NCBI GenBank assembly: GCA_049322655.1
Contig: JBMORP010000006.1
Coordinates: forward strand, 576,410 to 640,409
DNA length: 64,000 nt
From: Patescibacteria group bacterium
GTDB taxonomy: Bacteria > Patescibacteriota > Microgenomatia > UBA1400 > PJMF01
Direction of reading: 5' to 3'
Under the pieces are notes generated by a model, which ran no database searches, was not told the DNA's origin, and saw nothing but the letters and a program-made list of their open reading frames with translations. The translations under genes were made by a program, and so were the position numbers. This document shows, one piece after another, positions 134-51,782 of the stretch. Every line of letters begins with the position of its first letter. Position 1 is the stretch's first letter.

Positions 134-541
134 ATGAAAAAACTTAACCAATTATTTTTTAGTTTAGCTTTTTTCTTAGCTTCCACTCAAATAGTTAATG
201 CTCAAGGCTCTTCTATTTTCGGTACAATTAAACCTCCAGCCGGGGTTGATAAATATGGCGATATTCAAAGCGGTGGTTTACTCCTTTTTGCCTCAAATGG
301 CATTAGATTGGCCACAACTGTAGCCGGTGTTTGGGTGATGCTTAACTTTATTTTGGCTGGCTGGAAATACATTACTTCTTCTGGTGATAGTAAAGCCGCG
401 AGTGAAGCTTCGACAATGATGACCAATAGTATTATTGGTTTGGCGATTATTGTTGGTTCCTATACCTTAGCAGCGATCGCTGGTTTGGTTTTCTTTGGTG
501 ATGCTACTTATATCTTGAATCCAAAAATTACAGGAGTTTAA
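134..541 (+). CDS. small secreted membrane protein, TrbC/VirB2-like (T4SS pilin-like) family, paralog 1
   Basis: Signal peptide ending VNA-QG, two hydrophobic helices, and a conserved core ITSSGDSKAASEA...IIGLAIIVGSYTLAAIAG shared with the downstream paralogs. Confidence 0.5.
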   Translation: MKKLNQLFFSLAFFLASTQIVNAQGSSIFGTIKPPAGVDKYGDIQSGGLLLFASNGIRLATTVAGVWVMLNFILAGWKYITSSGDSKAASEASTMMTNSIIGLAIIVGSYTLAAIAGLVFFGDATYILNPKITGV

Positions 542-546
542 AAAAC

Positions 547-918
547 ATGCAATTAGCACAAAAAACAACTAATATCGGCGGCTTCACTCCTCCCACTAAT
601 GCTTATAGTCAGGGCTCTAACTCGGCTGCAGGCGCACTGTCAAATCTTGAATTATTTATCTCAAACATTATTGGTTTTATGACTGCTATTGGCAGCGTTT
701 TCTTTGTCATTTACTTTGTTTTGGGAGCTTTTGAATGGATCACTAGTGGTGGAGATAAAGGCAAAGTGGAAAAAGCCAGAAATAGAATGATGAATGGAGC
801 TATTGGCCTAGTTATCTTGGTGGCTTCATATGCCATTATTGGTTTACTTGGTAGCTTTATTGGTCTTGATCTACTTAATCCAGCAGAACAAATTAGACAA
901 ATCTACGGCACAATCTAA
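547..918 (+). CDS. TrbC/VirB2-like pilin-family small membrane protein, paralog 2
   Basis: Conserved motif EWITSGGDKGKVEKARNRM-NGAIGLVILVASYAIIG, two TM helices, 5-nt spacing from the upstream paralog. Confidence 0.5.
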   Translation: MQLAQKTTNIGGFTPPTNAYSQGSNSAAGALSNLELFISNIIGFMTAIGSVFFVIYFVLGAFEWITSGGDKGKVEKARNRMMNGAIGLVILVASYAIIGLLGSFIGLDLLNPAEQIRQIYGTI

Positions 919-922
919 ACTT

Positions 923-1330
923 ATGAAGAAAAAACTCAACACCTTAATCACTACTCTAGCCCTCAGTCTAATGATGGCTTCTCCTGTTGAAGCAGAAATC
1001 ACTAATCCAGTGGTAGAGGGTGGCTTTGGGAGAGGCTCTGATCGAGCGGCTGCCGGCACAACCTTTGCTGAGTATTTTATCTTTTTTTGGAATGCACTCA
1101 TCAGTTTGGGGGCAATCACTGTGATTATCTTTTTTATTTGGGGCAGTATGGAATGGATTACTAGTGGCGGTGATAAAGGTAAAGTGGAAAATGCTAGAAA
1201 TAGAATTACTCAAGCAGTCATTGGCTTAGTAGTCTTAGTTGGTTCTTATGCCATTATTGGTTTCATTGGAGAAATTTTCTTTGGAGAAACCTTTAGTGTC
1301 TTACAAATTAATATTCCAGATCCAAAATAA
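923..1330 (+). CDS. TrbC/VirB2-like pilin-family small membrane protein, paralog 3
   Basis: Start re-assigned to the ATG at 923 (MKKKLNTLITTLALSLMMASPVEA signal peptide); the ORF-track start at 830 overlaps paralog 2. Motif MEWITSGGDKGKVENARNRITQAVIGLVVLVGSYAIIG. Confidence 0.5.
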   Translation: MKKKLNTLITTLALSLMMASPVEAEITNPVVEGGFGRGSDRAAAGTTFAEYFIFFWNALISLGAITVIIFFIWGSMEWITSGGDKGKVENARNRITQAVIGLVVLVGSYAIIGFIGEIFFGETFSVLQINIPDPK

Positions 1331-1332
1331 TT

Positions 1333-1674
1333 ATGTCAAAACTAATCGCAGCCACCGTCGATCTAGCAGGAAAAGCCCAAGGAAATTTACCTGGAGCGGT
1401 TAGTGCCGATCCCCAAAAAAACTTTGGCTCTCTACTTGGCGGTCTAATGGGTGGCATCATGATTATCGCGGCCATTGCGGTATTAATTTATTTACTCTGG
1501 GGAGGCCTAGAGTGGATCAGTAGTGGTGGAGATAAAGGTAAAACCGAAGCCGCAAGAAATAAAATCACACAAGCCGTGATTGGTTTGATTGTTTTGGCTG
1601 CCACCACCGCCATTTTTATGTTACTACAGAACTTTTTGGGTATTTGTGTCTTGAGTTTCGGAGGGAGTTGTTAA
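1333..1674 (+). CDS. TrbC/VirB2-like pilin-family small membrane protein, paralog 4
   Basis: Motif LEWISSGGDKGKTEAARNKITQAVIGLIVLAATTAIF; begins 3 nt after the stop of paralog 3. Confidence 0.5.
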   Translation: MSKLIAATVDLAGKAQGNLPGAVSADPQKNFGSLLGGLMGGIMIIAAIAVLIYLLWGGLEWISSGGDKGKTEAARNKITQAVIGLIVLAATTAIFMLLQNFLGICVLSFGGSC

Positions 1675-1757
1675 AGTTTTTTTGACTATTCTGCCAAATT
1701 CTTGATACAATTAGCAAACAGTTACTTAATAAGGAATAAAAAAATAAAAAGGATCAT

Positions 1758-2162
1758 ATGACAAAAGCCAGAAAATTAGTTATCTCTACAGGAGTTGCTC
1801 TAAGCGGTTTGGCTTCTAGTGTTTTACCAGTGACTGCTGCTACAAGAATCACTGATACCAATGTTGACCCTGGTAAGGGTTTTGCCACTGATTTTGGTGG
1901 GTTGATCAATGGTGTCTTGAGTTTTGTGATGGTGTTAGCTGCTCTCTTGGTCTTTTTGTACCTTATTTGGGGTGGTATTGAATGGATTACTAGTGGCGGC
2001 GATAAAGGTAAAACCGAATCTGCTAGAAACAAAATTACTTCTGCTATTATTGGTTTGATTGTGGTGGCAGCTTCATATGCTATCTTAACTTTAGCTTTGA
2101 ACTTCCTCGGCTTTTCAGATCTTAATGAGGTCTTTAATACCAGAACTATTCAAGGTAAGTAA
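1758..2162 (+). CDS. TrbC/VirB2-like pilin-family small membrane protein, paralog 5
   Basis: Motif IEWITSGGDKGKTESARNKITSAIIGLIVVAASYAIL; N-terminal signal and TM segment. Confidence 0.5.
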   Translation: MTKARKLVISTGVALSGLASSVLPVTAATRITDTNVDPGKGFATDFGGLINGVLSFVMVLAALLVFLYLIWGGIEWITSGGDKGKTESARNKITSAIIGLIVVAASYAILTLALNFLGFSDLNEVFNTRTIQGK

Positions 2163-2184
2163 AAGTACTTGTAAATTGATAAAT

Positions 2185-2215
2185 AAACCCCACATTTTTA
2201 ATGTGGGGTTTTTAG
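2185..2215 (+). terminator. intrinsic terminator after pilin paralog 5
   Basis: Perfect 11-bp stem AAACCCCACAT / ATGTGGGGTTT with a 5-nt loop, followed by a T-run. Confidence 0.6.
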
Positions 2216-2222
2216 TTTCTCA

Positions 2223-2230
2223 TGTATAAT
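2223..2230 (+). promoter_or_regulatory. extended -10 promoter element (TGTATAAT) for pilin paralog 6
   Basis: TGTATAAT lies 32 nt upstream of the ATG at 2262; an AGGAAAAG Shine-Dalgarno sits 6 nt before the ATG. Confidence 0.4.
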
Positions 2231-2261
2231 GCAATTGCCACTAAAAACAGGAAAAGCAGCT

Positions 2262-2681
2262 ATGTTTAAAAAAACTTTCAAGAGAATTTCTATCTTTGTT
2301 TACACAGCATTATTTTTTTTGTACTCAGCTATACCTGTTAAAGCCCAGGGCTCTAGTTGGAGTGGCGTGTGTGTTGACGATACCAACACCGATGTAGCTA
2401 CTCTTCAGGGTTTTCAATGTTTAATCGCCAGGCTATTGGGTAGCTTTTTAACCTTAGTTGGCATTGCGGCTTTTTTGATGTTAGTAGTTGCTGGAGTTAG
2501 AATTTTACTATCTGGAGGAAATTCTCAAGCAATAGAAAAATCAAAAAACTCAGTGACTTTTGCTATCGTCGGTCTAATTGTAGCCCTAAGTTCTTTTGTC
2601 ATTCTAAACTTACTTTCAGAATTTACTGGAGTAAAAAACATTCTTCAGTTTGTGATCCCTACTTCTGATACTCAGTGGTAA
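2262..2681 (+). CDS. divergent TrbC/VirB2-like pilin-family small membrane protein, paralog 6
   Basis: Start moved to 2262 (MFKKTFKRISIFVYTALFFLYSAIPVKA-QGSS signal peptide) because the 2229 ATG overlaps the -10 box. C-terminal core LSGGNSQAIEKSKNSVTFAIVGLIVALSSFVILNLL follows the family pattern. Confidence 0.45.
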   Translation: MFKKTFKRISIFVYTALFFLYSAIPVKAQGSSWSGVCVDDTNTDVATLQGFQCLIARLLGSFLTLVGIAAFLMLVVAGVRILLSGGNSQAIEKSKNSVTFAIVGLIVALSSFVILNLLSEFTGVKNILQFVIPTSDTQW

Positions 2682-23900: not shown

Positions 23901-24479
23901 TGCTTCTTCTTCGCTTTCTGGCTCTGCTTGAGCGTTGAGATCTTTATCTTCTTTGATTTTAATAAGATCTAAGAGTAGTTTGGCAGTACTACCAATGTAG
24001 TCTGTCAACAAAACATTTAACTCATGATCATCTTTACCAGTAATCTCTAATTGATTGTAGGCGTGTTTTTCACAGGAAATGATAATTACAAATAAAATTT
24101 GTAAGGTATCTTTATCTAGTTCCAATTTGCCAGCATCAACTTCTTTTTGATACCAGTTATTAATGTCACCCAGGAAGTTATTTGCTATATCTGTAAACAA
24201 AAAAGCTAAATCACTTTTATAAAGGAAAAAATTCAATTGATCAGCCAAATGATCTCTAGAAATGATGTAGCTTCTATCTTTAGTGGTTAGTTTGAGGCTA
24301 CTAGTATTAACTTCTTTGAATAAACTTTGAAAAGAAAAATTTAATTCTGGTTCACTAGCAATATTAGACCTAGTTAAAAGTTCTAAGAAACCTTTGATTG
24401 TGTCCAAATTAACATCATCCCTTAATCTCTTTAAGAAATACCTCTCTTGGCCAGTTAATTTAGGCTTTGCATCGGACAT
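20910..24479 (-). CDS. giant multi-domain protein (1189 aa): N-terminal acidic domain, Gly-rich TM region, C-terminal M23 (LytM) peptidase domain; putative T4SS cell-wall hydrolase
   Basis: C-terminus DVVAGEVLGQMGNTGNSSGSHLHFELR is the M23 HxH catalytic motif. The central segment LGGLGLGSLAYFL...GGGFGIGK is a Gly-rich membrane region. Confidence 0.6.
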   Translation of the reverse strand: MSDAKPKLTGQERYFLKRLRDDVNLDTIKGFLELLTRSNIASEPELNFSFQSLFKEVNTSSLKLTTKDRSYIISRDHLADQLNFFLYKSDLAFLFTDIANNFLGDINNWYQKEVDAGKLELDKDTLQILFVIIISCEKHAYNQLEITGKDDHELNVLLTDYIGSTAKLLLDLIKIKEDKDLNAQAEPESEEEAKPEEQVVEENKPLSAGAPQTAATDSDSGGTTSEEEVQTQPPDKLQEEQNDPLVTKNILFSKELREQAANFTGIALAQLEQQHGLPPGTLANSKDLQRVLSDKTLGFFLTTLGNGRLDDLVNPETRLTLIREYVWLVQNDFRTTALISTHLTETLSNNKNPELREKIETALQEAEAGTGPAVSELVTNLAQHPALEQVFGELKKEELVEDKDDYLAKEATKLLQGELQRIGVQADKLTLAEKNVVNVVDSWILQGLPLDLLQYVDEGRFKLIFGEEIPFNQEFLSTIGEIWIARRSIIGKRTGQLLLHNEAKFATQEALALLDENKQVLNKKEADQVFERAIATPTKQILVGSKEAPVKNPQEVIEFFNDKKGVTNAEKREVFLKQVWAAKDTETKKEILVVLGYGEAGSKTIQNIAETPDFYPKEIGLHDMAPLLGGAAFYNTEEINNFNSSYIPDNGVLQSPLANVNQFTRRSRGLSGRLKRGVKGLRSRLSKKAASKAADKAAEAGLSKAAATATTAIHPALGFLTKLATTKRGRQTLMALGGLGLGSLAYFLINAAQSLLTLIPTVLGAIGGGIAGFFIGGPVGAAIGVGIGAGGGFGIGKLLEEIFTGKKGQNYYSFQNGATGNTVAAAQTTTQGLAEATTLQPTSFIGQSIVHIGGQAVLGTIATVAGTGLLVQSTISSALVADFPIVDPLSTVSGSIPGKESEYVTIEKRAFIAGCPENKCENPAFPIKVEYTITITPKGNYTVQVLDATDTMKVNHSEKAWEEHEGKKPPTVPERIKKLADFPELYEEMIIEPGESVVLTYSESLDSNYNHSSVLNTFDLKVFAKDSQTGVEGTDNAITGEVIYIGDYSQGAGCWPASGTITQLPGGSYSHGRVDAFDIANSEGTTIFAPFSGKACPGNLDPGYGIHVVLSETEVGTFVFGHFRSSNIQSCKDVVAGEVLGQMGNTGNSSGSHLHFELRGSAPNSGTLPALMPDGASVKVNDPVRTCYE

Positions 24480-29895: not shown

Positions 29896-31644
29896 CTAGT
29901 GTTTATCATCTTCCCCGTAAGTTTCAGCTCTCATTCTATCTCGTTTTCTCTTTGCCATCTTTTCTTTTTCTTCATAAGAACCTCTTTGGGTGGCGTCTCT
30001 ACCCATCCAATCTTGATCACCAGCTATTCTCTTAAGTCTCTCTGCATCGCTAAAGTGCTGACCACCTCGGTCAACAATTGTTTCAACTCCAGATAGTGCT
30101 GCTGGTGTCTTAGCGCCAACTTTATCTGCCAACCATCCACCCGCTTGAGTTCCTTTGGCCATAGTGTTTCCAGCACCCCTACCAGCACCTTTAAGAATAT
30201 CTCTACCAAGATCCATACCTCTATTTCCAGCTCTCCAGCTTTGCACTGTAGCTCCAAGACCACCACCAATTGCTCCAGCTCCGGCTCCAAATGTAGCCCC
30301 CGCAATTCTAGAACCAATTGGAGCCCCTTCTTTCATCTGATCAACAGCCTTGAATGCCAAGGTTTCCCAAATACCACCATCGATTTTCATGGCCTTTTTC
30401 ATTTCTTTAATCAACTCTGGAATGATTAAAATAATACCAATCCCAACTAAAGTCATCATGACACTACCAGAACCACGACCGATTAAGAATGGAGGCATAA
30501 AACCACCAACACTGAGGTCTCCTTTGGTAAACATTTCATAGAGAATAAGAGAAAAAAGCACCATGGGGAAAGCTAGTAAATTGCCAAAAACAATTTTAAT
30601 CCAGTAGCCAAAGTTGCTTTTTCCTGGCACAGCACCCATCATTAATAAAAGTGGGCTCACGACAATAGCCACAATAATCGTGATATAGATTTTGAGTAAT
30701 TCAAAGAAAAGTTTAAACACACCAATCAAGATAGCAATCGAAACAATTAAGCCCATTGTTAGACCACCTAACCAGCCAAGCACCTCACCAACAGCACTAG
30801 TATCAATACTAGCAGCAAAGGTCTTAACAGCTTCATTCATACTAGAGAAAGCACCATTAGTGTTAACTCCTGTGACGACATCCCAACCAATTTGTAGGAA
30901 AGTCTTGCTAATTAATTCAGTTCCACCTTCAGGGCTAAATAAACCGATCATTAAGTACATTAGTAGATACATTAAATCAATCAAAAAGCCAGCAATAGCA
31001 TAAGAAAAAGTGACAAAAACCAAAGAAATAATAATGCCTGGAATGGCCTGTTGAGCTGTGATCACTGTTTGACCATTTAGTTTTTGGCGGAACATGATCA
31101 TAAAACCAATCATTAAGAAGATCACCACAAAAAAGAAATAGGCAATATTTCTAAAAACTTTCCAGGTTTCTAAAACTGGATCGAGAGAGGAGAATCCCAA
31201 ACCTTGAGCTTGAGCCTGAGGAATGACGTGGGCATCTTCTAATAATTGGGCGACATAAGTTGTTCCAGAAGCTGGAGGAGTGTAAAGCATAGCCAAAGCT
31301 TGAGTGGTATCACCAATTACTCCTCGGCCATAATGCTCATAAACAATGGCTTTTTCTTCATCAGACATGTTTTGGACAGCGACACTGTCAGCGGGAACGC
31401 CATTAAGTTTTAAAAACCAGTCAGCTTCACCCACTTTAGAAACCGAAGGAACTAAGGAATGCAAAGACATCTTGCCTTTGTCAGCTTCTATTTGACCTGT
31501 TAGGGTTTCCTCGACATTTTTATCAACACCAAAAGTTTCTCTAAACCAATCAAACAAGCCAGCGGCCTGAATTGGTTTGGCCATAGTAAACGAACCTATT
31601 AGCAAAAAAAAGAAGAAAATAGCAATCCGAGTGAGCTGCTTCAT
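29896..31644 (-). CDS. polytopic membrane protein, VirB6/TrbL-like (putative T4SS channel component)
   Basis: Signal peptide, a ~150-aa periplasmic domain, at least 6 TM helices and a Gly-rich C-terminal tail (GATFGAGAGAIGGGLG), the architecture typical of TrbL/VirB6. Confidence 0.45.
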   Translation of the reverse strand: MKQLTRIAIFFFFLLIGSFTMAKPIQAAGLFDWFRETFGVDKNVEETLTGQIEADKGKMSLHSLVPSVSKVGEADWFLKLNGVPADSVAVQNMSDEEKAIVYEHYGRGVIGDTTQALAMLYTPPASGTTYVAQLLEDAHVIPQAQAQGLGFSSLDPVLETWKVFRNIAYFFFVVIFLMIGFMIMFRQKLNGQTVITAQQAIPGIIISLVFVTFSYAIAGFLIDLMYLLMYLMIGLFSPEGGTELISKTFLQIGWDVVTGVNTNGAFSSMNEAVKTFAASIDTSAVGEVLGWLGGLTMGLIVSIAILIGVFKLFFELLKIYITIIVAIVVSPLLLMMGAVPGKSNFGYWIKIVFGNLLAFPMVLFSLILYEMFTKGDLSVGGFMPPFLIGRGSGSVMMTLVGIGIILIIPELIKEMKKAMKIDGGIWETLAFKAVDQMKEGAPIGSRIAGATFGAGAGAIGGGLGATVQSWRAGNRGMDLGRDILKGAGRGAGNTMAKGTQAGGWLADKVGAKTPAALSGVETIVDRGGQHFSDAERLKRIAGDQDWMGRDATQRGSYEEKEKMAKRKRDRMRAETYGEDDKH

Positions 31645-31722: not shown

Positions 31723-32598
31723 GTGTACTATACTACTCATATCATAATGATAGCGCTAGAACAAGTTAATTCTCTCAAAGAATATTTTCAGTCGGCTGAA
31801 TCAGTGGCTGTTATTTTGGGTCAAAAACCAACGGTTGACCAGCTCGCTTTAGCTAGTGCTTTATTTATTGGTTGCCAAAATCTTAACAAAGAAGTTGGCC
31901 TATACGCTCCTAAAAAAATTAGCGATGACCATTTCGATGTTTTGGCTAAACTGCAAACTGAATTAGGTAAGCAAAACTTGGTTGTTTCTTTTGATTATAA
32001 TGAACAAGCAGTTGATAAAGTGAGTTACCACATTGGCGAAGAAACTAAAAAATTTCACCTAACCATTAAACCAAAAAAAGGCGCTAAACCTCTTAATCCA
32101 GAATCGGTAGAGTTCTCTTATGCTGGGGCCGATGTTGATTTAATTTTTTTAATTGGTGTTCATGATCTAGAAACTTTGGATCAGTTATATTTTGGTTACG
32201 AATCGCTTTATGAAAATAGTTATGTAGTGACTTTGCATAACTTCAAACCAGAAATTGGAGCCACTCAGTTTGATTTGTCCGGGACAAGCAGTATGAGTGA
32301 AACCATGGTTGATTTACTGCAAAGCTTGGGAGTCGAACTCAATGACACCATTGCTACTTCACTGCTAATGGGGATTGAACAGACAACGAATCATTTGCAG
32401 TCGCTTACGACTAGTGCCGAGACTTTTGAAAAAGTTGCCCAGTTACTAAGAGCTGGTGCCAGAAGAATCAAAAGACAAGAAGCTCCAACTGTTGCTTTGG
32501 AGGTTAAAAAACTTAAACCAGTTAGGAAAAAAAGAGTTACTACGAAGAAAGTGATCTCAACCACTTCTTTATCAACCAAAACCAAAGTTGGTAAGTAA
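31723..32598 (+). CDS. hypothetical protein
   Basis: 291-aa ORF. A weak resemblance to NrnA/DHH N-termini was considered but the DHH motifs are absent. Confidence 0.35.
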   Translation: MYYTTHIIMIALEQVNSLKEYFQSAESVAVILGQKPTVDQLALASALFIGCQNLNKEVGLYAPKKISDDHFDVLAKLQTELGKQNLVVSFDYNEQAVDKVSYHIGEETKKFHLTIKPKKGAKPLNPESVEFSYAGADVDLIFLIGVHDLETLDQLYFGYESLYENSYVVTLHNFKPEIGATQFDLSGTSSMSETMVDLLQSLGVELNDTIATSLLMGIEQTTNHLQSLTTSAETFEKVAQLLRAGARRIKRQEAPTVALEVKKLKPVRKKRVTTKKVISTTSLSTKTKVGK

Positions 32599-32614
32599 AA
32601 GCAATTTATCTAGT

Positions 32615-35236
32615 TTATCTAATATTGCCACAGTCTAAAGTGAAAGTATCCATCGTACAGACACAATAGTTAGCTCCGCCACAGCCTTGAACTTCTTCAT
32701 AACTACCACAGGCTGGTTGAACTAGGTACTCAGTGGGTACACCATAGTTTCTACCTGCCATCATGTAGTAAAGCTGTTCGGTGGATGGAGTAGAGCCGTT
32801 AGCGGCTTTGTATTGTTCTACCAACCAACTTCTTTCAGATAATCTTTTTCTGAGGACATATTCCATTGAAGTCTCAATATCACAAGCAATGTCTGGATTT
32901 TCTCTAGCTTCTTTGATCCACGGGTCACTAGTGTCGTCAGCAATGTAAGCTGCTTGTGGACAGCCCTCTTTATCGATGCATTGAGGAATTAAAACACCAA
33001 CAATTCCAGAAGCTCCACAAGCGTTAGTAACAATTTCACCACAACTCATCTCTGTTTCACCAGCTCTGATTTTTCTCAGCATGGGGCTGGCTTCTATTTG
33101 TAAGAAGCCCCACAGCATTTGGGCATTATTAGGATCATTACCCGCAATACTACAAGTCATCTTCATTAGTTCGTTCATGGTGGGAAGTTTGGTGGTGCGA
33201 CTTTTAATTTCTTCACAAGATTTTTCTTCACCATCATCTGGGTCTGTGTCAACATAGCCCTTGCAACGACCTAAGAAGAGATCTTCAGTCCGTTTACAAC
33301 TACTAATGTATTCATAAGCTTTAGAGCCATAATCTCTCAAATTTTCTTGAATTTTCCTAATCATCCAGCCCAATTCACCACCCAAAATTCTCATTGGTTC
33401 TTCTGGCCACTCAACCACAATTCCAGCCATTTTCTTTTTTTCACACTCGATACAATATTTATCATCTTCTGGACATTTTTCTACACAGCCAGGTGGTTGA
33501 TGATAAATAAATTGAAAAACGTCTGGTTTGGTTTTGAGCAGGGCACTAGTGTTAACAAAAGTTAAGTTTTCAGGAATAATGCCACATTTACCATCAAAAT
33601 CTTCGACACAGTTATTTTCAACGATGGTTTGAAACTGTTCGGTGGTAAACATTTGTTTTAAAACAGCATTAATATAGTTCATATCACTACCATAAGGAGT
33701 AATTAAGTGGGCTCTAATAACAATCGGGTCTCCATCTAAATCTCCATTAACCACTTCATCTTTGACAATAATATTCCAATCAAAAGTGTAGGATGCGTCT
33801 GAAGGGAAAACTTTAGAGAAATAAGGATCTCTGAGTTCTCTTTTATTATCTGGGGTATTGGCATTAGAACCAAGTTCTCTTACTAGTTCATATGAACCTT
33901 CAAACCCCCCGCAATCAAGTCCACTACCATTAATTTGATCAATAAGGGAATTTAAAAGAATTTTTTCTGGGTCAGAGCCAATACATTGGGGTAGAGCACC
34001 ACAATCAATAATTTTTTCTGTGCCAGGAAGACCTTGTTTAACTGCCAAAATATCACCAATATATTTTTTGCGCTGATCTTTCATTTCTTCTAAATGCTTG
34101 GCAATAATATCTGGATCACTCAAAATATAGGAAGTTAATCGAGCGGAATCGGTGAGGTTGGGAAGGGAAAAAATCATGTTTGTGGCAGTAACGGGGACTT
34201 TGAAACCAATTACAATTGGAGCTTCTTTTTTGATTGGCATTCTTTCAAAAGTTCCTCCCCAGACTGGTTCTGGAGTTTGAATTTCTAGAAAGTCAAAAAT
34301 ATCCTCATTACTCTCAAAGAGAGCTGGGTTAACTTCTTCGTTACCCTCCATCACATTTTGTCTGATTGAGACAACTAGAAAAGCCAAGCGGTACAAAGCT
34401 TCAAGATTGAGTGGTGCTAGGTTAATATCTTCAGCAAAGGGTTGAATATTATTTCTAAATTTTGATTCACTGATACCAAACTCTTCTTCTATCTCTGGAG
34501 TCCAAGCATTCATTAACTCTTTACAACTAAAATTTTTGTTTGGATCTTTTTTACTTTTAATATCGAAAATATCTCTGAGCGCTTCAAAAAGAATCCAGCC
34601 ACCATAATCACGGCCAGGAATATCAATTTGGTTGAGTTTACAAGGATTACCTTCTTTAAATTTGTCACAAAAAAGTTTGTTGTAGACTTCATAAAGGTTG
34701 TTGTACTTCACCACACATTGTTGTTCTTTATCTAGGAGTGCTGTTGCTACGCCACCAGAGTTTAGTTCAGCTGGTTGTTTTTTTAGGTTTTGCGCACCGA
34801 AGTAACCTTCGTATGAAGAAATCTTGGTGGTGTCAGAAAAATCTTCATCTCCTTGGAAAAGAGGAATTTTACCTTCGGCAAAATTACCTTCATAAACAGA
34901 GGTTGAAGTCAATCTAACTGGTTTTTCATATTCTTCAAAATATTCTTTAATATCACCGTGAACTTGACCATTAATCCACCATTTTGGTCTGGCACATTGC
35001 ACTTCATAACCCTGGTTGTAAGCCATTTGGTAAGTAATAATGTCTCTAAGCTCTCCAGTATTACCCAGAGAATATTCATCCTCAATCACTAAGGGTAAAT
35101 AGTTATACATTTCTGGGTCACGACGGGTGTAGTTAACGTAGTCATCACTAGAGGCTGCTTGAATTTGAAAAATTCTCCCAGCCAACAAAAAAACAAAAAA
35201 AGACAAAACAAATAGACTACTGAATCTAGTTTTCAC
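32615..35236 (-). CDS. large secreted Cys-rich hypothetical protein (~874 aa), probably translated from a leaderless or short-leader mRNA
   Basis: Start re-assigned to the GTG at 35236, giving a canonical signal peptide (M)KTRFSSLFVLSFFVFLLAGRIFQIQA. A TATAAT -10 box lies only 6 nt upstream. Many Cys pairs. Confidence 0.5.
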   Translation of the reverse strand: MKTRFSSLFVLSFFVFLLAGRIFQIQAASSDDYVNYTRRDPEMYNYLPLVIEDEYSLGNTGELRDIITYQMAYNQGYEVQCARPKWWINGQVHGDIKEYFEEYEKPVRLTSTSVYEGNFAEGKIPLFQGDEDFSDTTKISSYEGYFGAQNLKKQPAELNSGGVATALLDKEQQCVVKYNNLYEVYNKLFCDKFKEGNPCKLNQIDIPGRDYGGWILFEALRDIFDIKSKKDPNKNFSCKELMNAWTPEIEEEFGISESKFRNNIQPFAEDINLAPLNLEALYRLAFLVVSIRQNVMEGNEEVNPALFESNEDIFDFLEIQTPEPVWGGTFERMPIKKEAPIVIGFKVPVTATNMIFSLPNLTDSARLTSYILSDPDIIAKHLEEMKDQRKKYIGDILAVKQGLPGTEKIIDCGALPQCIGSDPEKILLNSLIDQINGSGLDCGGFEGSYELVRELGSNANTPDNKRELRDPYFSKVFPSDASYTFDWNIIVKDEVVNGDLDGDPIVIRAHLITPYGSDMNYINAVLKQMFTTEQFQTIVENNCVEDFDGKCGIIPENLTFVNTSALLKTKPDVFQFIYHQPPGCVEKCPEDDKYCIECEKKKMAGIVVEWPEEPMRILGGELGWMIRKIQENLRDYGSKAYEYISSCKRTEDLFLGRCKGYVDTDPDDGEEKSCEEIKSRTTKLPTMNELMKMTCSIAGNDPNNAQMLWGFLQIEASPMLRKIRAGETEMSCGEIVTNACGASGIVGVLIPQCIDKEGCPQAAYIADDTSDPWIKEARENPDIACDIETSMEYVLRKRLSERSWLVEQYKAANGSTPSTEQLYYMMAGRNYGVPTEYLVQPACGSYEEVQGCGGANYCVCTMDTFTLDCGNIR

Positions 35237-35292
35237 AAGTTTATTATACCTTGAATTAAATGGATGTCCCAAAGCAAAGGTAGTCAAGTTGT

Positions 35293-35345
35293 GGTCAGGT
35301 TGTGGTGAGACACTTACCCACGGGGGAAAGGGGGTGTGGTGTTAT
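35293..35345 (+). repeat. copy 1 of the conserved G-rich intergenic motif (TTGTCAG-N9-TGAGAYRCTYACCCACGGGGKRAAGGGG)
   Basis: GTGGTCAGGTTGTGGTGAGACACTTACCCACGGGGGAAAGGGGGTGTGG. Confidence 0.6.
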
Positions 35346-35352
35346 TGAGTTT

Positions 35353-35775
35353 TTAAAGAATTTTTACCCCAAAGATAATCTCTAGGATTTGGGCTACCCA
35401 ATAAGAAGCAAACAAAATCAAAAAACCAACAATAGCCATGGTGACTCGTTTTTTACCTTCTTCTAAGCTTTTAGCATTAGTCGCTCCAGCTAGAATTTGT
35501 AACCCACCGGCTACAATCATGACAAATAAAGCTAAACCAGCAATTGGAAAAGCAAAAGTTAGTGCTCGGCTAATGATTCCTCCTGGGGTAGAGAGTTCAG
35601 CTGCATGGGGGGAGTTAGCTACTTTTAGTGGATCAAATGAGTCTAAAACATCAGATGTAACTTCATAAGAGTTTTCTTCAGCTGGTAAATCGGCAGCATT
35701 AACTAGAGTTGGAGAAACTAAACTTAGCCAAACTAGACTGGTTAAAACTAGCATTTGTTTGATTTTATTATTCAT
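35353..35775 (-). CDS. TrbC/VirB2-like pilin-family small membrane protein (paralog 8)
   Basis: Start set to the ATG at 35775 (MNNKIKQMLVLTSLVWLSLVSPTLVNA signal peptide; GGAGG SD 8 nt upstream). C-terminal LAGATNAKSLEEGKKRVTMAIVGFLILFASYWVAQIL matches the family core. Confidence 0.5.
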   Translation of the reverse strand: MNNKIKQMLVLTSLVWLSLVSPTLVNAADLPAEENSYEVTSDVLDSFDPLKVANSPHAAELSTPGGIISRALTFAFPIAGLALFVMIVAGGLQILAGATNAKSLEEGKKRVTMAIVGFLILFASYWVAQILEIIFGVKIL

Positions 35776-35779
35776 GTTT

Positions 35780-37006
35780 TTAGCCTCCAAAACCAGGGAT
35801 CTGGAATAGGTTGACACCAATAAATCTTAGCATGGTAATAGAGAAGATGATAAAGACCATGCCGATAATAGCTGAAGTAATCTGCTCTTTAGCATCTTTG
35901 GTTGCTTGTGGGTCTCCTTGAGAAACAGATAATCTAAATGCTCCAGCCAGAATTAGTAAGAAGGTGGCACCCCCTCCAACGCTTAAACCAACGGTAATAA
36001 AGGTTTTGATAATGCTATCAGGTTTAGCTGGAATACAGCCAATCGCAGTCCACACGCCAGCATTGCCATTGAAAGTTTCTCCACCGAAACAAGCTTGGCA
36101 TTTATCCCGGTCTTCAGCTGTAGCCTGTTCACACAGTTCAAAGTTTTTCACCATCACGTTCTCAGAAACATCAGTTCTAATGTCATCACACATTTCGTCT
36201 TCACAGTAGTCAATGGTGTTAAAACTAGTTGAACAGCCAGGAAAAATATATTTGGGACCTTCAGCAGTCTCTACATGAATTTTATAGGTAGTTTGATTGT
36301 CAGCTTCAAAACTAGCAGAGGCTTTACCTCCTGTAGCTTTGGTTTTTTCGTCAGCAGTGCTCCCACCCTTAATGACAAATTTTACTTCACCAGAGAAGGG
36401 TTTGCCTTGTGAATCTTCCAAACCCTCGACTTCTATTTTGGTGGTAGAAGAAGTTGTGTCCATGCAGCCAGATGAATAACAGGTTTGCCCATCCCTACTT
36501 TGTGAAACATACAAAGCACATTTGCCACCAGTGTTGTTGTTGCTAGTTTTATAAGTACCAGCATCACAGATTTTTGAACCATTTTTATAGATAGAAATAT
36601 AATGTTCTGCTTCTTCGCCACTGATTCCCCAGTGAGTTAATGCACCTTCTTCTTTAATTGTCCAAGTAACCTTACCATTTTTTAAGTTAAGAGTATTGCT
36701 ACCATTGGTCAGAGTACCACTTTTGGTAGTTTTAAATTTGGCTGAAGTTGCTTGAGCGTCTCCCCACCAGCCACTAACAACTATTTCGTATTCACCATTT
36801 GGATCATAACCACTACTCATATCGATTTCGATAGTGTGAGAGGTGGTGCCAGCAGGCAAAGTGCCTCTTGCTCCACTCAGTACGCCACTACATGAGCCAA
36901 CAGCTTCCACATTAGTGACACTAATTGCCAAGAAAGATAATCCCAAAAAGATAGTAAGGAAAATTTTTTTAACCAAAACAAAAAATGATTGATAAGTCTT
37001 AATCAT
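35780..37006 (-). CDS. secreted Cys-rich ectodomain fused to a C-terminal TrbC/VirB2-like pilin module (candidate minor pilin/adhesin)
   Basis: Signal peptide, a ~300-aa Cys/Thr/Gly-rich domain, then IGCIPAKPDS...GDPQATKDAKEQITSAIIGMVFIIFSITMLRFIG, which matches the pilin-family core. Confidence 0.5.
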   Translation of the reverse strand: MIKTYQSFFVLVKKIFLTIFLGLSFLAISVTNVEAVGSCSGVLSGARGTLPAGTTSHTIEIDMSSGYDPNGEYEIVVSGWWGDAQATSAKFKTTKSGTLTNGSNTLNLKNGKVTWTIKEEGALTHWGISGEEAEHYISIYKNGSKICDAGTYKTSNNNTGGKCALYVSQSRDGQTCYSSGCMDTTSSTTKIEVEGLEDSQGKPFSGEVKFVIKGGSTADEKTKATGGKASASFEADNQTTYKIHVETAEGPKYIFPGCSTSFNTIDYCEDEMCDDIRTDVSENVMVKNFELCEQATAEDRDKCQACFGGETFNGNAGVWTAIGCIPAKPDSIIKTFITVGLSVGGGATFLLILAGAFRLSVSQGDPQATKDAKEQITSAIIGMVFIIFSITMLRFIGVNLFQIPGFGG

Positions 37007-37109
37007 GTTAAATACTTTAAATCTGGTTTTTATGGAGTTTATTTTATCATGAGCTGAGTTTGTTCAGCTAGTCGTAGCTTCAAACTATTTTCGTCTATAT
37101 AATAAAGAT

Positions 37110-38804
37110 GTGTTTAGAGAAAAAAGACTACGATCTTTTGTGTTTTTGTTTCTATTTTTAGTCGTTGGGGTTTTTGTTTTTAAATCAGAATCAATCCAAG
37201 TTTTTGCTGAAGATCCAGTGTCTACTTTACAAAGACAGATTGATGAGCTCGAACAATTAAAAAAACTTTCAGAAGACGCGACCAAGCCATTAGAAGCAGA
37301 ATTAAATTCTTTAGAGAAAAAAATTGCTAATGCCAGACAAAGTATCATTAATGCTCAGCGACAAGCCAAAGAGTTAGAAAAAACTATTGAAAAAAGAGAG
37401 GAAGATGTTGCTGTTCAGTATGTTATTTTTTCTAACAGAATTGCTCAACAATATAAAAGATCACGAACTTTTTCACCTTTGCTGCTGTTTTTTAACAGTA
37501 GTAATGCCAGTAAGTTGACCAAAAACTTAGCTTACAGTTCTTCTGTTCAGGCTCAAGACAACCGATTAATTAGGTCTTTGACCGAAGAAATAATGAAACT
37601 AGAAACAGATAAAAACAAGCTAGAAACAGATCAAGTTACTCTGGCTTCTTTGGAAAAACAACTTGATAGTCAAGCTAGTTTTTTTAAAGTGGAAATCGAC
37701 AAAGCCAAAGACTACCAGTCTGAGCTAGCTGGTCAAATTGCTACTTTATCTGCTAGACAACAAGAAATTATTAATGCTAGGTCTGGGACTTTTACGGCTT
37801 CGATCGGTAATAGTGAGCTAGCTGATGACTACAATGCCTCAATTAAAGGTTTTAGAGAAGCTGCTCCAACTGGTAGCTTTGCAGTTTTTTCTTTTGGTGC
37901 TTACACTCATCGCAAGGGGATGAGTCAATATGGAGCTAGGGGCAGAGCTCAAGCTGGCCAAAACTTTAAACAAATTCTTCAAGCTTACTATGGTAAGGAA
38001 CCAGTTAATAAAGACACTGGAGGAAATATTAGTGTGGCTGGCTATGGTTCAATCGAGTTCGAAACGACCTACTTATATGGGATCGCCGAGATGCCATCTA
38101 GCTGGAGTTTAGAAGCATTAAAGGCCCAAGCGGTAGCAGCTAGAACTTATGCTTATCGCTATAAACAAGAGGGCAAAGAAATCTGTACGACGGAAGCTTG
38201 CCAGGTTTTTAATAAAGCAAAATCAGATAGTCCACCAAGCGCCTGGAAGCAAGCTGTTGATGAAACCAAAGGTCAAGTTTTGGAAGATGTCGTAACTTAT
38301 TATGCTTCTACTCATGGAGGTTATGCTTCACCGATTGGTTGGGATACTACAGATGGTTCTGGTGGGAGTGATTTTATTGATAAATCTTATGACAAGCTGG
38401 GGGGCTCTCCCTGGTTATATAAAGCTTGGTACACCAAAGGGTATAGTCCTTCATCTGATAAGTGTGGCAGGGCGAATCCTTGGTTAACTGGGGCCGAGCT
38501 TGCTGACATTATTAATGCCGCTAAATACCGTGATGATCGAGTAACACCAATCACCACGGCCTGTTGGGGTGGCAACCCTTATTCTCATGAAGAGCTTAGA
38601 GCTAAAGCAAATGGACCTGCCAATGTAACAGGAGTGACAGTTAAACAAGGTAATGGAAGTACTTCTGAGGTTGTGTTCCAAACAGACAAAGGAACGATTA
38701 CTTTATCTGGCTCAGATTTTAAAACAGCTTTTAATCTGCGTGCTCCTGGTCATTTATCAATCCCTCAGAGCGGTTTTGCTTTTTTCAATATTGAACACAA
38801 ATAA
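37110..38804 (+). CDS. secreted coiled-coil protein with C-terminal SpoIID/LytB-like domain
   Basis: GTG start, signal peptide, ~200-aa coiled coil, then ALKAQAVAARTYAYRY, characteristic of SpoIID/LytB. Confidence 0.6.
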   Translation: MFREKRLRSFVFLFLFLVVGVFVFKSESIQVFAEDPVSTLQRQIDELEQLKKLSEDATKPLEAELNSLEKKIANARQSIINAQRQAKELEKTIEKREEDVAVQYVIFSNRIAQQYKRSRTFSPLLLFFNSSNASKLTKNLAYSSSVQAQDNRLIRSLTEEIMKLETDKNKLETDQVTLASLEKQLDSQASFFKVEIDKAKDYQSELAGQIATLSARQQEIINARSGTFTASIGNSELADDYNASIKGFREAAPTGSFAVFSFGAYTHRKGMSQYGARGRAQAGQNFKQILQAYYGKEPVNKDTGGNISVAGYGSIEFETTYLYGIAEMPSSWSLEALKAQAVAARTYAYRYKQEGKEICTTEACQVFNKAKSDSPPSAWKQAVDETKGQVLEDVVTYYASTHGGYASPIGWDTTDGSGGSDFIDKSYDKLGGSPWLYKAWYTKGYSPSSDKCGRANPWLTGAELADIINAAKYRDDRVTPITTACWGGNPYSHEELRAKANGPANVTGVTVKQGNGSTSEVVFQTDKGTITLSGSDFKTAFNLRAPGHLSIPQSGFAFFNIEHK

Positions 38805-38838: not shown

Positions 38839-39165
38839 TTAGACAAAAGCTCTTTTTAGGCCAAATTTATTGAGAGGATTGTTGGTTGTGACTTGATTAT
38901 TTTTGGTTAAAGATGGTAGTTGAGGGATTTTACTAGGTTCAATGGCAATTTTTTTTGGTTCAGGTAAGGTCTTAAGTTGTTGTTGATCTAGCTTAGGGGC
39001 TTCTTTTTGTGGAGATAGTAGGTGAATATCTTTACTATTATCATAAGGTCTGATGATGGCAATTGGTTTTGAACGATACATTAATAGGAAACTCTCTCCT
39101 TTGTTCAATGCTCGATGAATGGGAGAAAAACTTTGTCTGAACTGTTTCATTGACACAATTTTCAT
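38839..39165 (-). CDS. hypothetical protein
   Basis: 108-aa ORF, no recognizable motif. Confidence 0.3.
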   Translation of the reverse strand: MKIVSMKQFRQSFSPIHRALNKGESFLLMYRSKPIAIIRPYDNSKDIHLLSPQKEAPKLDQQQLKTLPEPKKIAIEPSKIPQLPSLTKNNQVTTNNPLNKFGLKRAFV

Positions 39166-39306: not shown

Positions 39307-41253
39307 TTAAACTCCTTGTAAATACTTAGCTGCCCAAGGTCGGTAATTAGAATAGTAGGTTTTTTGTCTGATTATTTCGCCATTTTTATCTTTAACGGTG
39401 TGGGTAAATTGAGCCTTAATGCCGCTAGCAGCCCAATCAATTTGTTTAGTTTGACCGGTGGGCAAGGATGGATCTGGTACATAAACAGGAGGAAGCGGTT
39501 CTCGAAAATCCCAAGATTTATAGTTTGTTATCTCGGTTGTTCTGCCATCGCTAGTGCCATAAAGCTCCACTTTCATATAAAGATTTTGGCTGTCTGCTTC
39601 TGTGTAAATGAGGACATAGTTATTGGTATCGTTAATGAATCTGAGATCGACATTACCATCATAGACAGTGGCATCAAAACCAGGATTATTATCTAGCTCA
39701 TAGTAACTAACGCGGTAACTATGAGGCAGCCTTAAGGTAATATTGAGACCAGCATCCAACAAAGATCTAAAGAGAGTGGTGCTGACTTGACAAACCCCGC
39801 CACCGTCTCCCAAGACAGTTTGACCATCTTTAATTACATAGGCTGGTTTGTAACCGGTTAGAGCCGAGACCTCTCCAAGAGCTTTGTTAAAAGAGAACTC
39901 TTTTCCTGGTGGAACTATTGAGTAATTAATTTTTTGAGCAGTTAAAGCTACATTATGAATTCTACTAGGAATACTGTGGGCATAATAACTATCTCCAAAA
40001 CCAATTCTTTCAGCTATACCGAGATTATTTGTGTCAGCCAAACTAACATCAGGAGGAGAGGCAGTGATTGGAAACTCTTGTGTGATTGAGGTGGTAGTTG
40101 TAGTTTCTGAAGTTTGACTGAGTAAATCAGTAATTGTTTGTTTGATCATAGCGACTGTCTTAGCCTGATCCAGAACAAGCCCTTCTTTATGAGGTTTAAA
40201 TTTTGTGACTTTGAAGGTTTGTTTGTCAAACTCAAACTCAGCATTTTGGGCTGGTCTATCTAATTTTTGTTTCCAAACATCAATTTTTTTTTGGATTTTT
40301 TCATCGATAAAACCGCTAGGAAAAGTCAAAAAAGATACTAGGTCTTGATCAGTGAGTTTTTCTTTTGTTTTGTCATAAGTGAAGATTAGTTCTTGACCAA
40401 CTAATTTTTGAGCTGTTTTCAAAGCAGTGGTGGTTTGAGAACTATCGAGAGTTTTACTTAGCCAGTGAGTAATGGGTTTAAAGGTTAGAGTGGGTTGCTT
40501 TTTTATATTTGTTAAAGAACTGTTTGTTTCTAAAAATTTGTTCAATTCTTTGATTGTTTGTTCAACATCAATGCCTAAAACGTTTTCACCTGGATTTAAA
40601 ACCAATGATTGAGGGTTGTTAGATTGTTCTAGCGTAATTTGAGGAAGGCTTGGCTCCTGGTTAAATTGATTTTTAACTATAGTTATAAATTCAGCTAGTT
40701 TTTGTTGATCATATTTAATTGGCAATGAATGTGATTTTGGTTGATAGGGAGAAAAAAAGAGTTTTCCTAACCAATGAAGTGGTTGTTGCTGCTGGTCTTT
40801 TAAGATTTTGGTTAAAGTAGCTTCGTAATCGTAGTAAGCGGACAGAGTTGTTGAAGCTGTCGCAACTGAAAAGTCTTTTTTTTCAAAGTTATCCAAATCA
40901 AGGTTGTTTGCTATTTGAAATTCTTCAGTATTTAAAGCAATTATTAAATTGTGTTCTAGGGGAATGGGGTATTGTTGGCTAATTTTTTGGAGAGTTTCTT
41001 GTTTGTTTAAACCGCCAATTCTGACTTCCTCGAGGTATGTTTCCGGAAGAAATTTGGAAGAAGAATAGGCAACAAACAAACCCATGGTGGTAATGACTAA
41101 AACAAGAGAAAAAAGACTTATTACTTGAAAATTCTTGGATTGTTTTTTTTCGAATGGATTGAGTTTTTCCTCAAGAATGATCGGTGCTTTCTTTTTACTT
41201 AAAAAGAACCAATTGCCCAACTTGAACTTGATAGGGTGACCAAAACGCTCCAT
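39307..41253 (-). CDS. VanW-domain membrane-anchored protein
   Basis: N-terminal TM; C-terminal GDGGGVCQVSTTLFRSLLDAGLNITLRLPHSYRVSYY matches the VanW domain signature. Confidence 0.65.
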   Translation of the reverse strand: MERFGHPIKFKLGNWFFLSKKKAPIILEEKLNPFEKKQSKNFQVISLFSLVLVITTMGLFVAYSSSKFLPETYLEEVRIGGLNKQETLQKISQQYPIPLEHNLIIALNTEEFQIANNLDLDNFEKKDFSVATASTTLSAYYDYEATLTKILKDQQQQPLHWLGKLFFSPYQPKSHSLPIKYDQQKLAEFITIVKNQFNQEPSLPQITLEQSNNPQSLVLNPGENVLGIDVEQTIKELNKFLETNSSLTNIKKQPTLTFKPITHWLSKTLDSSQTTTALKTAQKLVGQELIFTYDKTKEKLTDQDLVSFLTFPSGFIDEKIQKKIDVWKQKLDRPAQNAEFEFDKQTFKVTKFKPHKEGLVLDQAKTVAMIKQTITDLLSQTSETTTTTSITQEFPITASPPDVSLADTNNLGIAERIGFGDSYYAHSIPSRIHNVALTAQKINYSIVPPGKEFSFNKALGEVSALTGYKPAYVIKDGQTVLGDGGGVCQVSTTLFRSLLDAGLNITLRLPHSYRVSYYELDNNPGFDATVYDGNVDLRFINDTNNYVLIYTEADSQNLYMKVELYGTSDGRTTEITNYKSWDFREPLPPVYVPDPSLPTGQTKQIDWAASGIKAQFTHTVKDKNGEIIRQKTYYSNYRPWAAKYLQGV

Positions 41254-50385: not shown

Positions 50386-50463
50386 TAGATTCGTGAAAGC
50401 GTTAAGTTGAAGTTCGGTTGGTTGGGCAGGCTACCGAACTTCAGCTTAGCGCTTTTTTTATTT
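50386..50463 (+). ncRNA. candidate small RNA: extended -10 promoter (TGcTGTATAAT 50369-50379) followed ~25 nt later by a 20-bp hairpin and a T-tract
   Basis: Stem GCGTTAAGTTGAAGTTCGGT (50399-50418) / ACCGAACTTCAGCTTAGCGC (50433-50452) with 2 mismatches, then TTTTTTTATTT. No ORF. A TTAATGTTCA direct repeat sits upstream (50355-50364 and 50347-50356 region). Confidence 0.3.
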
Positions 50464-51728: not shown

Positions 51729-51782
51729 CGACATCTACATATTTTGTAGTTTAAATTTCCCATTTTTTTATCCTATAACATT

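Follow-up and report, generated by a model that had tools for sequence, protein, structure and literature searches.

A VirB2-like pilin with a large ectodomain and its partner pilin at the start of a Patescibacterial type IV secretion gene block

What is a pilin hairpin doing at the end of a 408-aa secreted protein, and what could such a protein contribute to the machine with which it is encoded? The question is raised by a locus in a 64,000-nt stretch of DNA from a Patescibacteria group bacterium (GenBank assembly GCA_049322655.1, contig JBMORP010000006.1, positions 576,410 to 640,409), which is called the window below and to which the coordinates refer. It is a segment of a Patescibacteria (candidate phyla radiation, CPR) chromosome around the replication origin, with dnaA and dnaN present. 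We call the 408-aa protein B. Its gene opens a type IV secretion system (T4SS) block of ca 21 kb on the minus strand (15612-37006) and is followed by the gene of a 140-aa pilin, called A. An initial annotation had described B as a pilin module fused to a cysteine-rich ectodomain, and both open reading frames (ORFs) were found where it had placed them.

Arrays of pilins of the Pfam family PF18895 are already known, and they and the T4SS are essential to a Saccharibacterium when it grows as an epibiont (Wang et al. 2023, PMC10633639). What is new here is the pair of ectodomain-bearing VirB2-like pilins. Three points go beyond the initial annotation, namely that A is a partner type of its own, that a SpoIID-like gene is a conserved partner, and that B stands at the start of the T4SS block.

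The pilin hairpin of B and its ectodomain

The C-terminal ca 80 aa of B are indeed pilin-like. Residues 343-395 match PF18895 (T4SS_pilin) with an E value of 7.9e-6 and 26.3 bits, and the same hit is precomputed for the identical database protein and for most of the 91 B homologs. When 204 B-type hairpins were compared with 18 short pilins using HHalign, a probability of 98.3% (E 2.3e-14) was obtained over 68 columns, covering both helices and the loop, so that the similarity on which the initial annotation relied survives profile alignment. In addition, a loop motif, S/T-x-G-D/N ... A-K/R, is common to B and the short pilins of the array found near the start of the window, and the hairpin gives a hit below cutoff (E 1.5e-4) to the NCBIfam model of the 'pilin-like conjugal transfer protein' of Mycoplasma integrative and conjugative elements (ICEs). 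Pfam reports no match of B to PF04956 (TrbC/VirB2).

At the level of the family, and with these lines of sequence evidence combined, B is best placed in PF18895, and at that level it is a structural relative of the VirB2-type pilins. It has their cleavable signal peptide followed by two hydrophobic helices with a short polar loop. Their small size, with a precursor of ca 100-185 aa and no globular domain, is not shared by B, which has 408 aa and two beta-sandwiches. It could be argued that two hydrophobic helices resemble a pilin here by chance and that B is a plain surface protein with two transmembrane (TM) helices, considering that two-helix hairpins are low in information and that the Pfam score lies marginally under the gathering threshold. 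This explanation was tested by the profile comparison, which does not support it, and the precomputed hits, the common loop motif and the T4SS gene context of B also speak against it; we consider it scarcely credible.

Hydrophobic segments are found in B at residues 7-37, 335-361 and 374-403, the N-terminal signal ending VEA|VGSC, and the 12 cysteines are all located in the stretch from the signal peptide to the TM helices. Ten of the 12 are invariant or nearly so among 36 full-length homologs of 26-87% identity, the neck cysteines C268, C273, C292, C303, C306 and C324 being among them. The AlphaFold2 (AF2) model, calculated with the 36-sequence alignment, has a mean predicted local distance difference test score (pLDDT) of 81. 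It consists of a signal-peptide helix, two beta-sandwiches at residues ca 38-160 and 161-265 (mostly with pLDDT >90), a less confident neck at 266-328, and the two helices of the hairpin at 329-361 and 366-400. A Foldseek search of the head against the PDB gave intimin D0-D1, the invasin InvD, complement C3 MG domains and Fabs with E values of ca 1e-5 to 1e-6. Since these matches, with low TM-scores and 10-16% identity, are generic tandem immunoglobulin-like (Ig) or fibronectin type III (FN3) architectures, the head is best described as an Ig-like rod with no identifiable ligand site. The predicted fold is thus of the tandem Ig-like, intimin/invasin type in a generic sense.

The secreted, cysteine-rich ectodomain of the initial annotation is therefore borne out by the signal peptide, the 12 extracytoplasmic cysteines and the predicted beta-sandwiches, and the structure prediction and fold search that it had called for resolve the ectodomain into two Ig-like domains; B is not predicted to be cytoplasmic. 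B is exported by the Sec route and held in the membrane by the pilin hairpin, with both ends outside, and the disulfide-braced neck and the two Ig-like domains project away from the cell. The ratio of nonsynonymous to synonymous substitution rates (dN/dS) against an 86%-identical ortholog is 0.11, which indicates a real gene under purifying selection.

Three other ways of anchoring or classifying B were considered and rejected. B has no lipobox, and in its homologs the first conserved cysteine follows an AXA-like site by 1-4 residues with variable spacing, which speaks against a lipoprotein. An LPXTG-like motif is present in none of B, A and the 890-aa protein encoded downstream of A, which speaks against sortase anchoring of the PrgB kind. 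Finally, B is not a pilin of type IV pili or of the type II secretion system (T2SS), because it has no class III signal (G|F/M-T-L-x-E) and its hydrophobic hairpin is C-terminal.

Related B loci are found in metagenome-assembled genomes (MAGs) of Pacebacteria, Paceibacterota, Woesebacteria and Microgenomates. The gene is CPR-specific; many MAG records with homologs are titled 'uncultured Pseudomonadales', 'Limisphaerales', 'Methylococcaceae' or 'TM6', and these are almost certainly mislabelled. A protein identical to B is annotated as hypothetical in an NCBI 'Patescibacteria group bacterium' MAG, and some B homologs are called 'pilin' by NCBI.

Conserved base, exchangeable heads and conserved partners

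The conservation of B rises towards the membrane. Identity to the ortholog at locus L001 is 45% in Ig1, the distal and most variable domain, 65% in Ig2, 74% in the neck and 95% in the hairpin, and the dN/dS values against the ortholog at locus L006 are, in the same order, 0.24, 0.10, 0.00 (dN = 0) and 0.007. Such a gradient is characteristic of a conserved docking base with an exposed, fast-evolving and exchangeable head.

The fixed part of the protein comprises the last ca 130 residues, that is, the neck motif, the hairpin with its S-Q-G-D-P loop, and I-P-G-F-G at the C-terminus. With the 130-aa neck and hairpin as query, a phmmer search of 1.84 billion cluster representatives (50% identity) returned 7306 proteins at E<=1e-3, 4638 at E<=1e-10 and 149 at E<=1e-30, and in nearly all of the best 150 hits the module is located at the extreme C-terminus. 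The WTAIGC-type motif is present in 206 of the 209 B-type proteins examined, and the distance from its tryptophan to the C-terminus is 90 aa in 135 of these 206 and 89-91 aa in 184; the PGFG C-terminus is present in 160 of the 209. All 209 proteins have 150-470 aa, none being as short as a stand-alone pilin. The N-terminal parts are very different. The 203 heads fall into 59 groups that are not linked by BLAST, the largest of which (111 members) is the Ig-tandem type of the query, and the neck motif is common to proteins with unrelated heads. A conserved docking module is made up of the neck together with the hairpin and the PGFG tail, and the head is a swappable cassette. Judged by these searches, B belongs to a large modular subfamily with thousands of clusters and is not a one-off fusion.

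The gene that follows B was described in the initial annotation as another stand-alone pilin paralog. That a pilin gene is adjacent is correct, but A is more than a mere paralog, as it represents a second conserved partner type and a distinct subfamily. In 80 species-representative genomes we examined flanks of 6 kb around B, and where a smaller denominator is given below (76 or 66) it is the number of loci with enough sequence. An A-type hairpin is encoded within 2 kb downstream of B on the same strand in 74 of 76 loci. The subfamily has the motif FDPLK ... STPGGIISR ... FAFPIAGL ... ASYW-x-AQI, which ends exactly at the C-terminus. The A of the window is the minimal form; the L003 ortholog has one small cysteine module, the L004 and L005 orthologs (436 and 449 aa) carry cysteine-rich heads of ca 330 aa, and the A-type ORFs across loci range from ca 104 aa to >500 aa. 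Hidden Markov models (HMMs) cleanly distinguish the B, A and short types and assign to the window exactly one B, one A and six short pilins. B and A are two separate subfamilies, and both are far more conserved than the array pilins.

The ATG of A is located 8 nt after a GGAGG Shine-Dalgarno sequence that is formed by the last codons of B (GGA GGC TAA, the ...GG terminus being conserved; window 35775-35790). This arrangement suggests translational coupling, and A is probably translationally coupled to B; the 155-aa version of the A ORF, with a TTG start, is probably too long.

On the other side of B, a SpoIID-like gene is encoded divergently upstream in 62 of 66 loci, and in all five homolog loci inspected, down to 30% identity, this gene upstream and the second pilin downstream were both found. 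The protein matches PF08486 (E 1.5e-20, 74.1 bits versus a cutoff of 23) and TIGR02669 (100.6 bits versus a cutoff of 83.3). The initial annotation had noted SpoIID-like and VanW-like wall-remodelling neighbours. Both assignments are confirmed by profile matches, but as a conserved partner of B only the former holds, since VanW is near B in 22 of 80 loci and its linkage is local synteny only. From its sequence, the SpoIID-like protein could be a candidate for the VirB1-like wall hydrolase that, according to surveys, is mostly missing from Patescibacterial T4SS clusters.

The other neighbours recur less often. The gene uppS is downstream of B in 36 of 80 loci, a relative of the 890-aa protein follows the B-A pair in 29, a relative of the 582-aa VirB6-like protein is encoded within 6 kb of B in 24, and at least three short pilins are found within 6 kb in 11. 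VirB4 is within 6 kb of B in none of the 80 loci, a count that says little, because in the window VirB4 is 18 kb from B and hence beyond the 6-kb flank. For the same reason, and since the VirB4 of the window belongs to the gene block of B, the zero count was discarded as evidence against a linkage to the T4SS.

In two loci, L014 (3495-10000) and L030 (3844-9900), B, A, an extra A-like gene and then 8-9 short pilins are arranged in one uninterrupted same-strand string, which ties the long pilins physically to the pilin array.

The T4SS block and other features of the window

The features are collected in Table 1. The block reads, from its first gene, B, A, the 890-aa protein, the VirB6-like protein, a 571-aa ORF, the M23 peptidase, the 326-aa TM protein, PrgI, the TrsD-like protein and VirB4, and then dnaA follows; it is interrupted by two plus-strand genes. 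B is accordingly encoded with a VirB4-type T4SS, sharing the minus-strand block with the VirB6-like, M23, PrgI, TrsD-like and VirB4 genes. The system is of the monoderm type. According to Quinonero-Coronel et al. 2025 (PMC12102498), Patescibacteria have an MPF-FATA-like T4SS near dnaA with VirB2-like arrays, and the layout of the window is the one described there.

Table 1. Features of the window discussed in the text, by position
Feature	Position	Strand	Basis or remark
Array of six short PF18895 pilins, next to uppS	134..2681	plus	Pfam, alignment; all six best with the short-pilin HMM
dnaN	12633-13736		directly downstream of the T4SS block, beside dnaA
dnaA	14006-15496		directly downstream of the T4SS block
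VirB4	15612-17681	minus	Pfam and NCBIfam
TrsD-like protein	17716-18801	minus	Pfam and NCBIfam
PrgI/VirB3-like protein	18853-19896	minus	Pfam and NCBIfam
326-aa TM protein	within 15612-24479, between the M23 gene and PrgI	minus	
M23 peptidase, 1189 aa	20910-24479	minus	Pfam and NCBIfam
Putative VirB6/TrbL-like polytopic membrane protein, 582 aa, Gly-rich tail	29896..31644	minus	topology, weak profile hits
Secreted protein, 890 aa, 28 Cys, downstream of A	32615..35287	minus	19 homologs
A-type partner pilin, 140 aa, no Cys, minimal form	35353..35775	minus	PF18895, 32.1 bits
B-type long pilin, 408 aa	35780..37006	minus	ORF, PF18895, 91 homologs, AF2, dN/dS
B hairpin, VirB2-like, two helices, aa 329-408, SQGDP loop, C-terminal IPGFGG	35783..36022	minus	AF2, PF18895, HHalign
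B neck, Cys-rich, aa 267-328	36023..36208	minus	motif F-x-L-C-x-Q...C-x-x-C...G-x-W-T-A-I-G-C-I-P
B proximal beta-sandwich (Ig2), aa 161-266	36209..36526	minus	AF2
B distal beta-sandwich (Ig1), aa 36-160	36527..36901	minus	AF2, strands mostly pLDDT >90; Foldseek, tandem Ig/FN3
B signal peptide, Sec-type, aa 1-35, predicted cut after VEA	36902..37006	minus	hydrophobic segment 7-37
SpoIID/LytB-domain protein, signal anchor and long coiled coil	37110..38804	plus	divergent from B
VanW	39307-41253		E 3.5e-41
VirD4-type coupling protein	47261-49474	minus	PF10412 (E 4.7e-12), TraG-D_C

The 582-aa protein has a signal peptide and 5-6 TM helices, and more than 1000 homologs. NCBIfam gives it sub-threshold hits to TM proteins of Mycoplasma ICEs (E 4.9e-7). 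PF04610 (TrbL) is matched by three of 37 homologs (best E 4.4e-6) and TrbL_5 by one, and the 582-aa query itself does not match PF04610. From topology and these weak hits it looks like a very divergent VirB6/TrbL. As VirB6 is reported to be scarce in Microgenomatia, this family may be the missing one.

For the 890-aa protein, no match was found in Pfam, NCBIfam or the PDB profiles. Its N-terminal ca 680 aa have 25-30% identity among the relatives that follow the B-A pair, and the AF2 model is poor (pLDDT 53) except for a helical C-terminal domain at aa 690-885. Foldseek found nothing in the PDB, and in BFVD only non-significant hits with E values of 0.3-6. The top ones of these include several phage lytic transglycosylases and endolysins, which is at most a hint and is not claimed as an assignment, and the protein has a 'QIEAS' motif reminiscent of SLT enzymes. 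The homologs are ca 17 aa shorter, which makes the TTG start codon uncertain.

In the short-pilin array, PF18895 is matched by all five of the six pilins that were scanned, and Pfam gives a PF04956 match to the pilin at 1758-2162 alone (E 0.016). Four array pilins have a TSGGDKGK-type loop with a charge of +2 to +3; the loop charge is -1 in the first one (134-541) and +1 in the last (2229-2681). The last one also has two cysteines ahead of its first TM helix, resembling a miniature neck. The mechanically predicted ORF 830-1330 overlaps its neighbour, and the real start is probably the ATG at 941.

A few further observations concern other parts of the window. A sortase-domain gene is located at 51821-52669 on the plus strand, and since B, A and the 890-aa protein have no sorting signal of the LPXTG kind its substrates must be elsewhere. 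Between the SpoIID-like gene and VanW there is a 108-aa ORF (38839-39165, minus strand) with a weak Phd/YefM antitoxin-like N-terminal match below cutoff (E 6.7e-4), and loci L001-L003 have a gene of similar size at the equivalent position. The ca 2 kb at 49800-51800 contain no ORF of at least 100 aa except for a GC-richer, mutually antisense pair (51293-51697 and 51317-51646). Scanning the complete window for Rfam families and tRNAs gave no hits, either in this region or in any other. Promoter and terminator scans of 32400-37300 are uninformative, because the number of sites is not above that in shuffled sequence.

Possible roles and comparison with known systems

B and A are two specialised, single-copy PF18895 members of a Patescibacterial monoderm-type T4SS. 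What they do there is entirely a matter of inference. The role that we favour, with a confidence that stays just short of even, is that of minor, priming or tip pilins, that is, of functional analogues of VirB5 that display heads for host contact. Through their hairpins, B and A would join the variable array pilins in assembly at the VirB6-like platform, as low-copy subunits with a minor, priming or tip function. VirB2 filaments grow from the base and carry their earliest subunits at the tip, where the heads of B and A would be presented to the host. These displayed heads would then contact the host cell in the way that VirB5 or the type IV minor pilins do, while the divergently encoded SpoIID-like enzyme would open the peptidoglycan locally in a VirB1-like role.

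Several properties of the pair fit a minor or tip role: there is one B and one A versus six array pilins, the base is invariant and the heads interchangeable, conservation drops steeply towards the distal domain, the head is Ig-like, and the genes either adjoin an array or stand at the head of the T4SS block. The tip adhesin or minor pilin of the initial annotation is thus upheld as an architecture, and as a function it agrees with the new facts but is a deduction from them. A more far-reaching version is doubtful to us, namely that B and A take the place of the missing VirB5 in a Gram-positive-type T4SS pilus, that their heads set the host range, bacterial or archaeal, of Microgenomatia or Paceibacteria epibionts, and that SpoIID is the missing VirB1. 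In 3,035 Patescibacteria genomes no PrgB-type adhesin and few VirB1 homologs were found, and it was suggested that 'other glycosidases' may replace VirB1 (PMC12102498); SpoIID is absent from the text of that study.

A number of observations weigh against a role as minor or tip pilins. No pilus has been seen on any Patescibacterium, and reviews mention one as a possibility only (PMC12857230). The experimentally studied Southlakia T4SS cluster contains only short pilins (ca 125-185 aa) and no long form, so the existing evidence from transposon sequencing (Tn-seq) does not transfer to the long forms. No positive selection was detected in B, dN/dS being below 1 in every domain with its maximum, 0.24, in Ig1; the pattern is one of relaxed constraint only, with no arms-race signature. 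The Ig-like fold is generic and names no ligand. As to the hairpin, the PF18895 score of B is 0.3 bits under the gathering score of 26.6, the AF2 confidence is moderate (pLDDT 65-78), and a PDB profile search with the B family found no solved VirB2 or TraA relative, the sole match being OspA at E 0.7. The loop between the helices has a net charge of -1, versus +2 to +3 in most array pilins, and B may therefore not hold an equivalent position lining the lumen.

This last point, together with the fact that pili have not been demonstrated in monoderm T4SSs (PMC12857230, PMC10633639), would suit a different role, in which B and A would belong to the fixed structure of the T4SS, at the surface or across the wall, and would not be filament subunits. 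The hairpins would be permanent anchors on the VirB6-like/VirB3-like channel, and the neck and Ig domains would surround the hole cut by SpoIID, either as a collar or conduit that crosses the peptidoglycan or as a static adhesin. The arrangement would be comparable to that of PrgA/B/C, with which the pCF10 operon starts, but with a hairpin anchor in place of LPXTG; B, A and the 890-aa protein sit where surface proteins start Gram-positive T4SS operons such as that of pCF10. The strong conservation of the hairpin, the neck and the exact C-terminus suits a fixed contact with the machine, the tight linkage to SpoIID points to the cell wall, and on an ICE of wall-less Mycoplasma a 'pilin-like' gene is found next to those of VirB4 and a polytopic TM protein, B and the 582-aa protein having their weak matches to this set. 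However, a fast-evolving distal domain and heads swapped between lineages suit an outward recognition surface better than a collar, and the pilin arrays that directly adjoin the pair on its own strand in some genomes suggest that both are assembled by one route. We regard fixed parts as a serious alternative, though less likely than minor or tip pilins; were they correct, the pair would still represent a previously undescribed use of the VirB2-type hairpin to anchor large ectodomains. One can also take the linkage to SpoIID, the most constant neighbour (62/66), a step further and place B, A and SpoIID in an envelope growth or division complex that is independent of the T4SS and remodels the wall in a DMP-like manner, the pilin fold being a reused membrane hairpin. 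That uppS, a wall-precursor gene, and VanW recur near B and that VirB4 never does so within 6 kb in the 80 loci would agree with this, but the flank cannot reach a VirB4 as distant as that of the window, the homology of the hairpin is specifically with the pilins of T4SSs, the neighbours of B and A include pilin arrays (L014, L030) or the VirB6-like gene (24/80), and variable, swappable heads are unexpected for the scaffold of a housekeeping wall enzyme. We find this proposal improbable. Still less probable is that B is a major, self-polymerising pilin of a filament densely decorated with Ig domains, with the array pilins as variants or accessory subunits. No other pilin type in these genomes is as conserved or as regularly present as B and A, and since VirB2-type pilins have both termini on the outer face of the filament, topology permits an N-terminal head. 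Against this stand the single copy, the bulky head of ca 290 aa on every subunit, the presence of a partner type in nearly all loci (74/76) and a loop without the net positive charge of the array pilins, and there is no direct evidence for it.

Returning to the minor or tip pilins, it should be pointed out that B is almost always accompanied by a second special pilin and by a putative wall-cutting enzyme, which makes it a good candidate for the part of the T4SS that reaches the host cell. The T4SS and the pilin array are essential in the only genetically tractable Patescibacterium, and the B/A pair, the SpoIID-like enzyme and the VirB6-like gene are concrete candidates for the gaps concerning the pilus, host contact and wall crossing. 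The invariant neck-hairpin-PGFG module offers an easy search handle and an epitope, and the variable heads a testable predictor of host range across a huge uncultured radiation.

In the searchable literature, where PF18895 is mentioned in only two works, we found no account of the B/A pair, of a neck-hairpin-PGFG module with swappable heads, or of the linkage to SpoIID. Long proteins with a PF18895 domain are found, unanalysed, in published tables; one of them is encoded by a 1230-nt (410-aa) gene, PMX_810_sub_00121 of Ca. Yanofskyibacterium, in supplementary file 4 of PMC10936435. The same study has 'T4SS pilin' proteins among the highly expressed candidate adhesion proteins, and two neighbouring 'T4SS pilin' genes, PMX.50_00607 and PMX.50_00608, belong to the unknown genes with the highest expression in a Paceibacterales parasite of methanogens. 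Such genes may represent B/A-type pairs for which expression data exist.

Compared with known systems, B is closest to the VirB2/TrbC-type and PF18895 array pilins, with which it shares the Sec signal, two helices with a polar loop, ends that face the outside, and VirB4/VirB6-type genes near dnaA. The known PF18895 pilins have ca 100-185 aa and at most a short N-terminal extension, whereas B inserts ca 290 aa, two Ig-like domains and a four-cysteine neck, between the signal peptide and the hairpin. Its C-terminal PGFG is invariant, and its loop carries no net positive charge. The Mycoplasma ICE proteins Mbov_0395 ('pilin-like'), Mbov_0396 (TM) and Mbov_0397 (VirB4) represent another monoderm T4SS with a VirB2-like small membrane protein, and they are linked to the present locus by the weak NCBIfam hits of the B hairpin (1.5e-4) and the 582-aa protein (4.9e-7). 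Both hits fall short of the curated cutoffs, and the model of the Mycoplasma protein comprises ca 80 positions and no ectodomain.

PrgA, PrgB and PrgC of Enterococcus pCF10 are likewise Ig-like surface proteins at the start of a monoderm (MPF-FATA-type) T4SS block, but they are sortase-anchored through LPXTG, which B, A and the 890-aa protein do not have, and Patescibacteria have no PrgB homolog (PMC12102498). The stalks of intimin and invasin (6tpl, 5ldy) are the best structural matches to the B ectodomain, and as rod-like tandem beta-sandwiches they keep a distal binding surface clear of the membrane. The matches are generic, with low TM-scores and 10-15% identity, and the anchor of these proteins is a beta-barrel while that of B is a helical hairpin.

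The likeness to VirB5/TraC (including CagL) concerns the proposed role, that of a low-copy subunit which contacts the target cell and which, at the VirB6 platform, serves to nucleate or cap the VirB2 filament, and the genes, which are likewise found beside those of the pilin and VirB6. VirB5 is, however, a soluble helical bundle without a pilin hairpin, while B is hairpin-anchored and Ig-like, and the two have no relation in sequence or fold; B has no VirB5 match in Pfam or NCBIfam, and its ectodomain is all-beta in the AF2 model. The minor pilins of type IV pili and T2SSs (GspK, PilX and PilV-type) combine, as B would, a conserved pilin base with a globular domain displayed at the tip, and their genes are single-copy. 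Their pilin fold and machine are unrelated, and B has no class III signal peptide. By analogy, B may thus work like VirB5 or like the type IV minor pilins, being a member of neither group.

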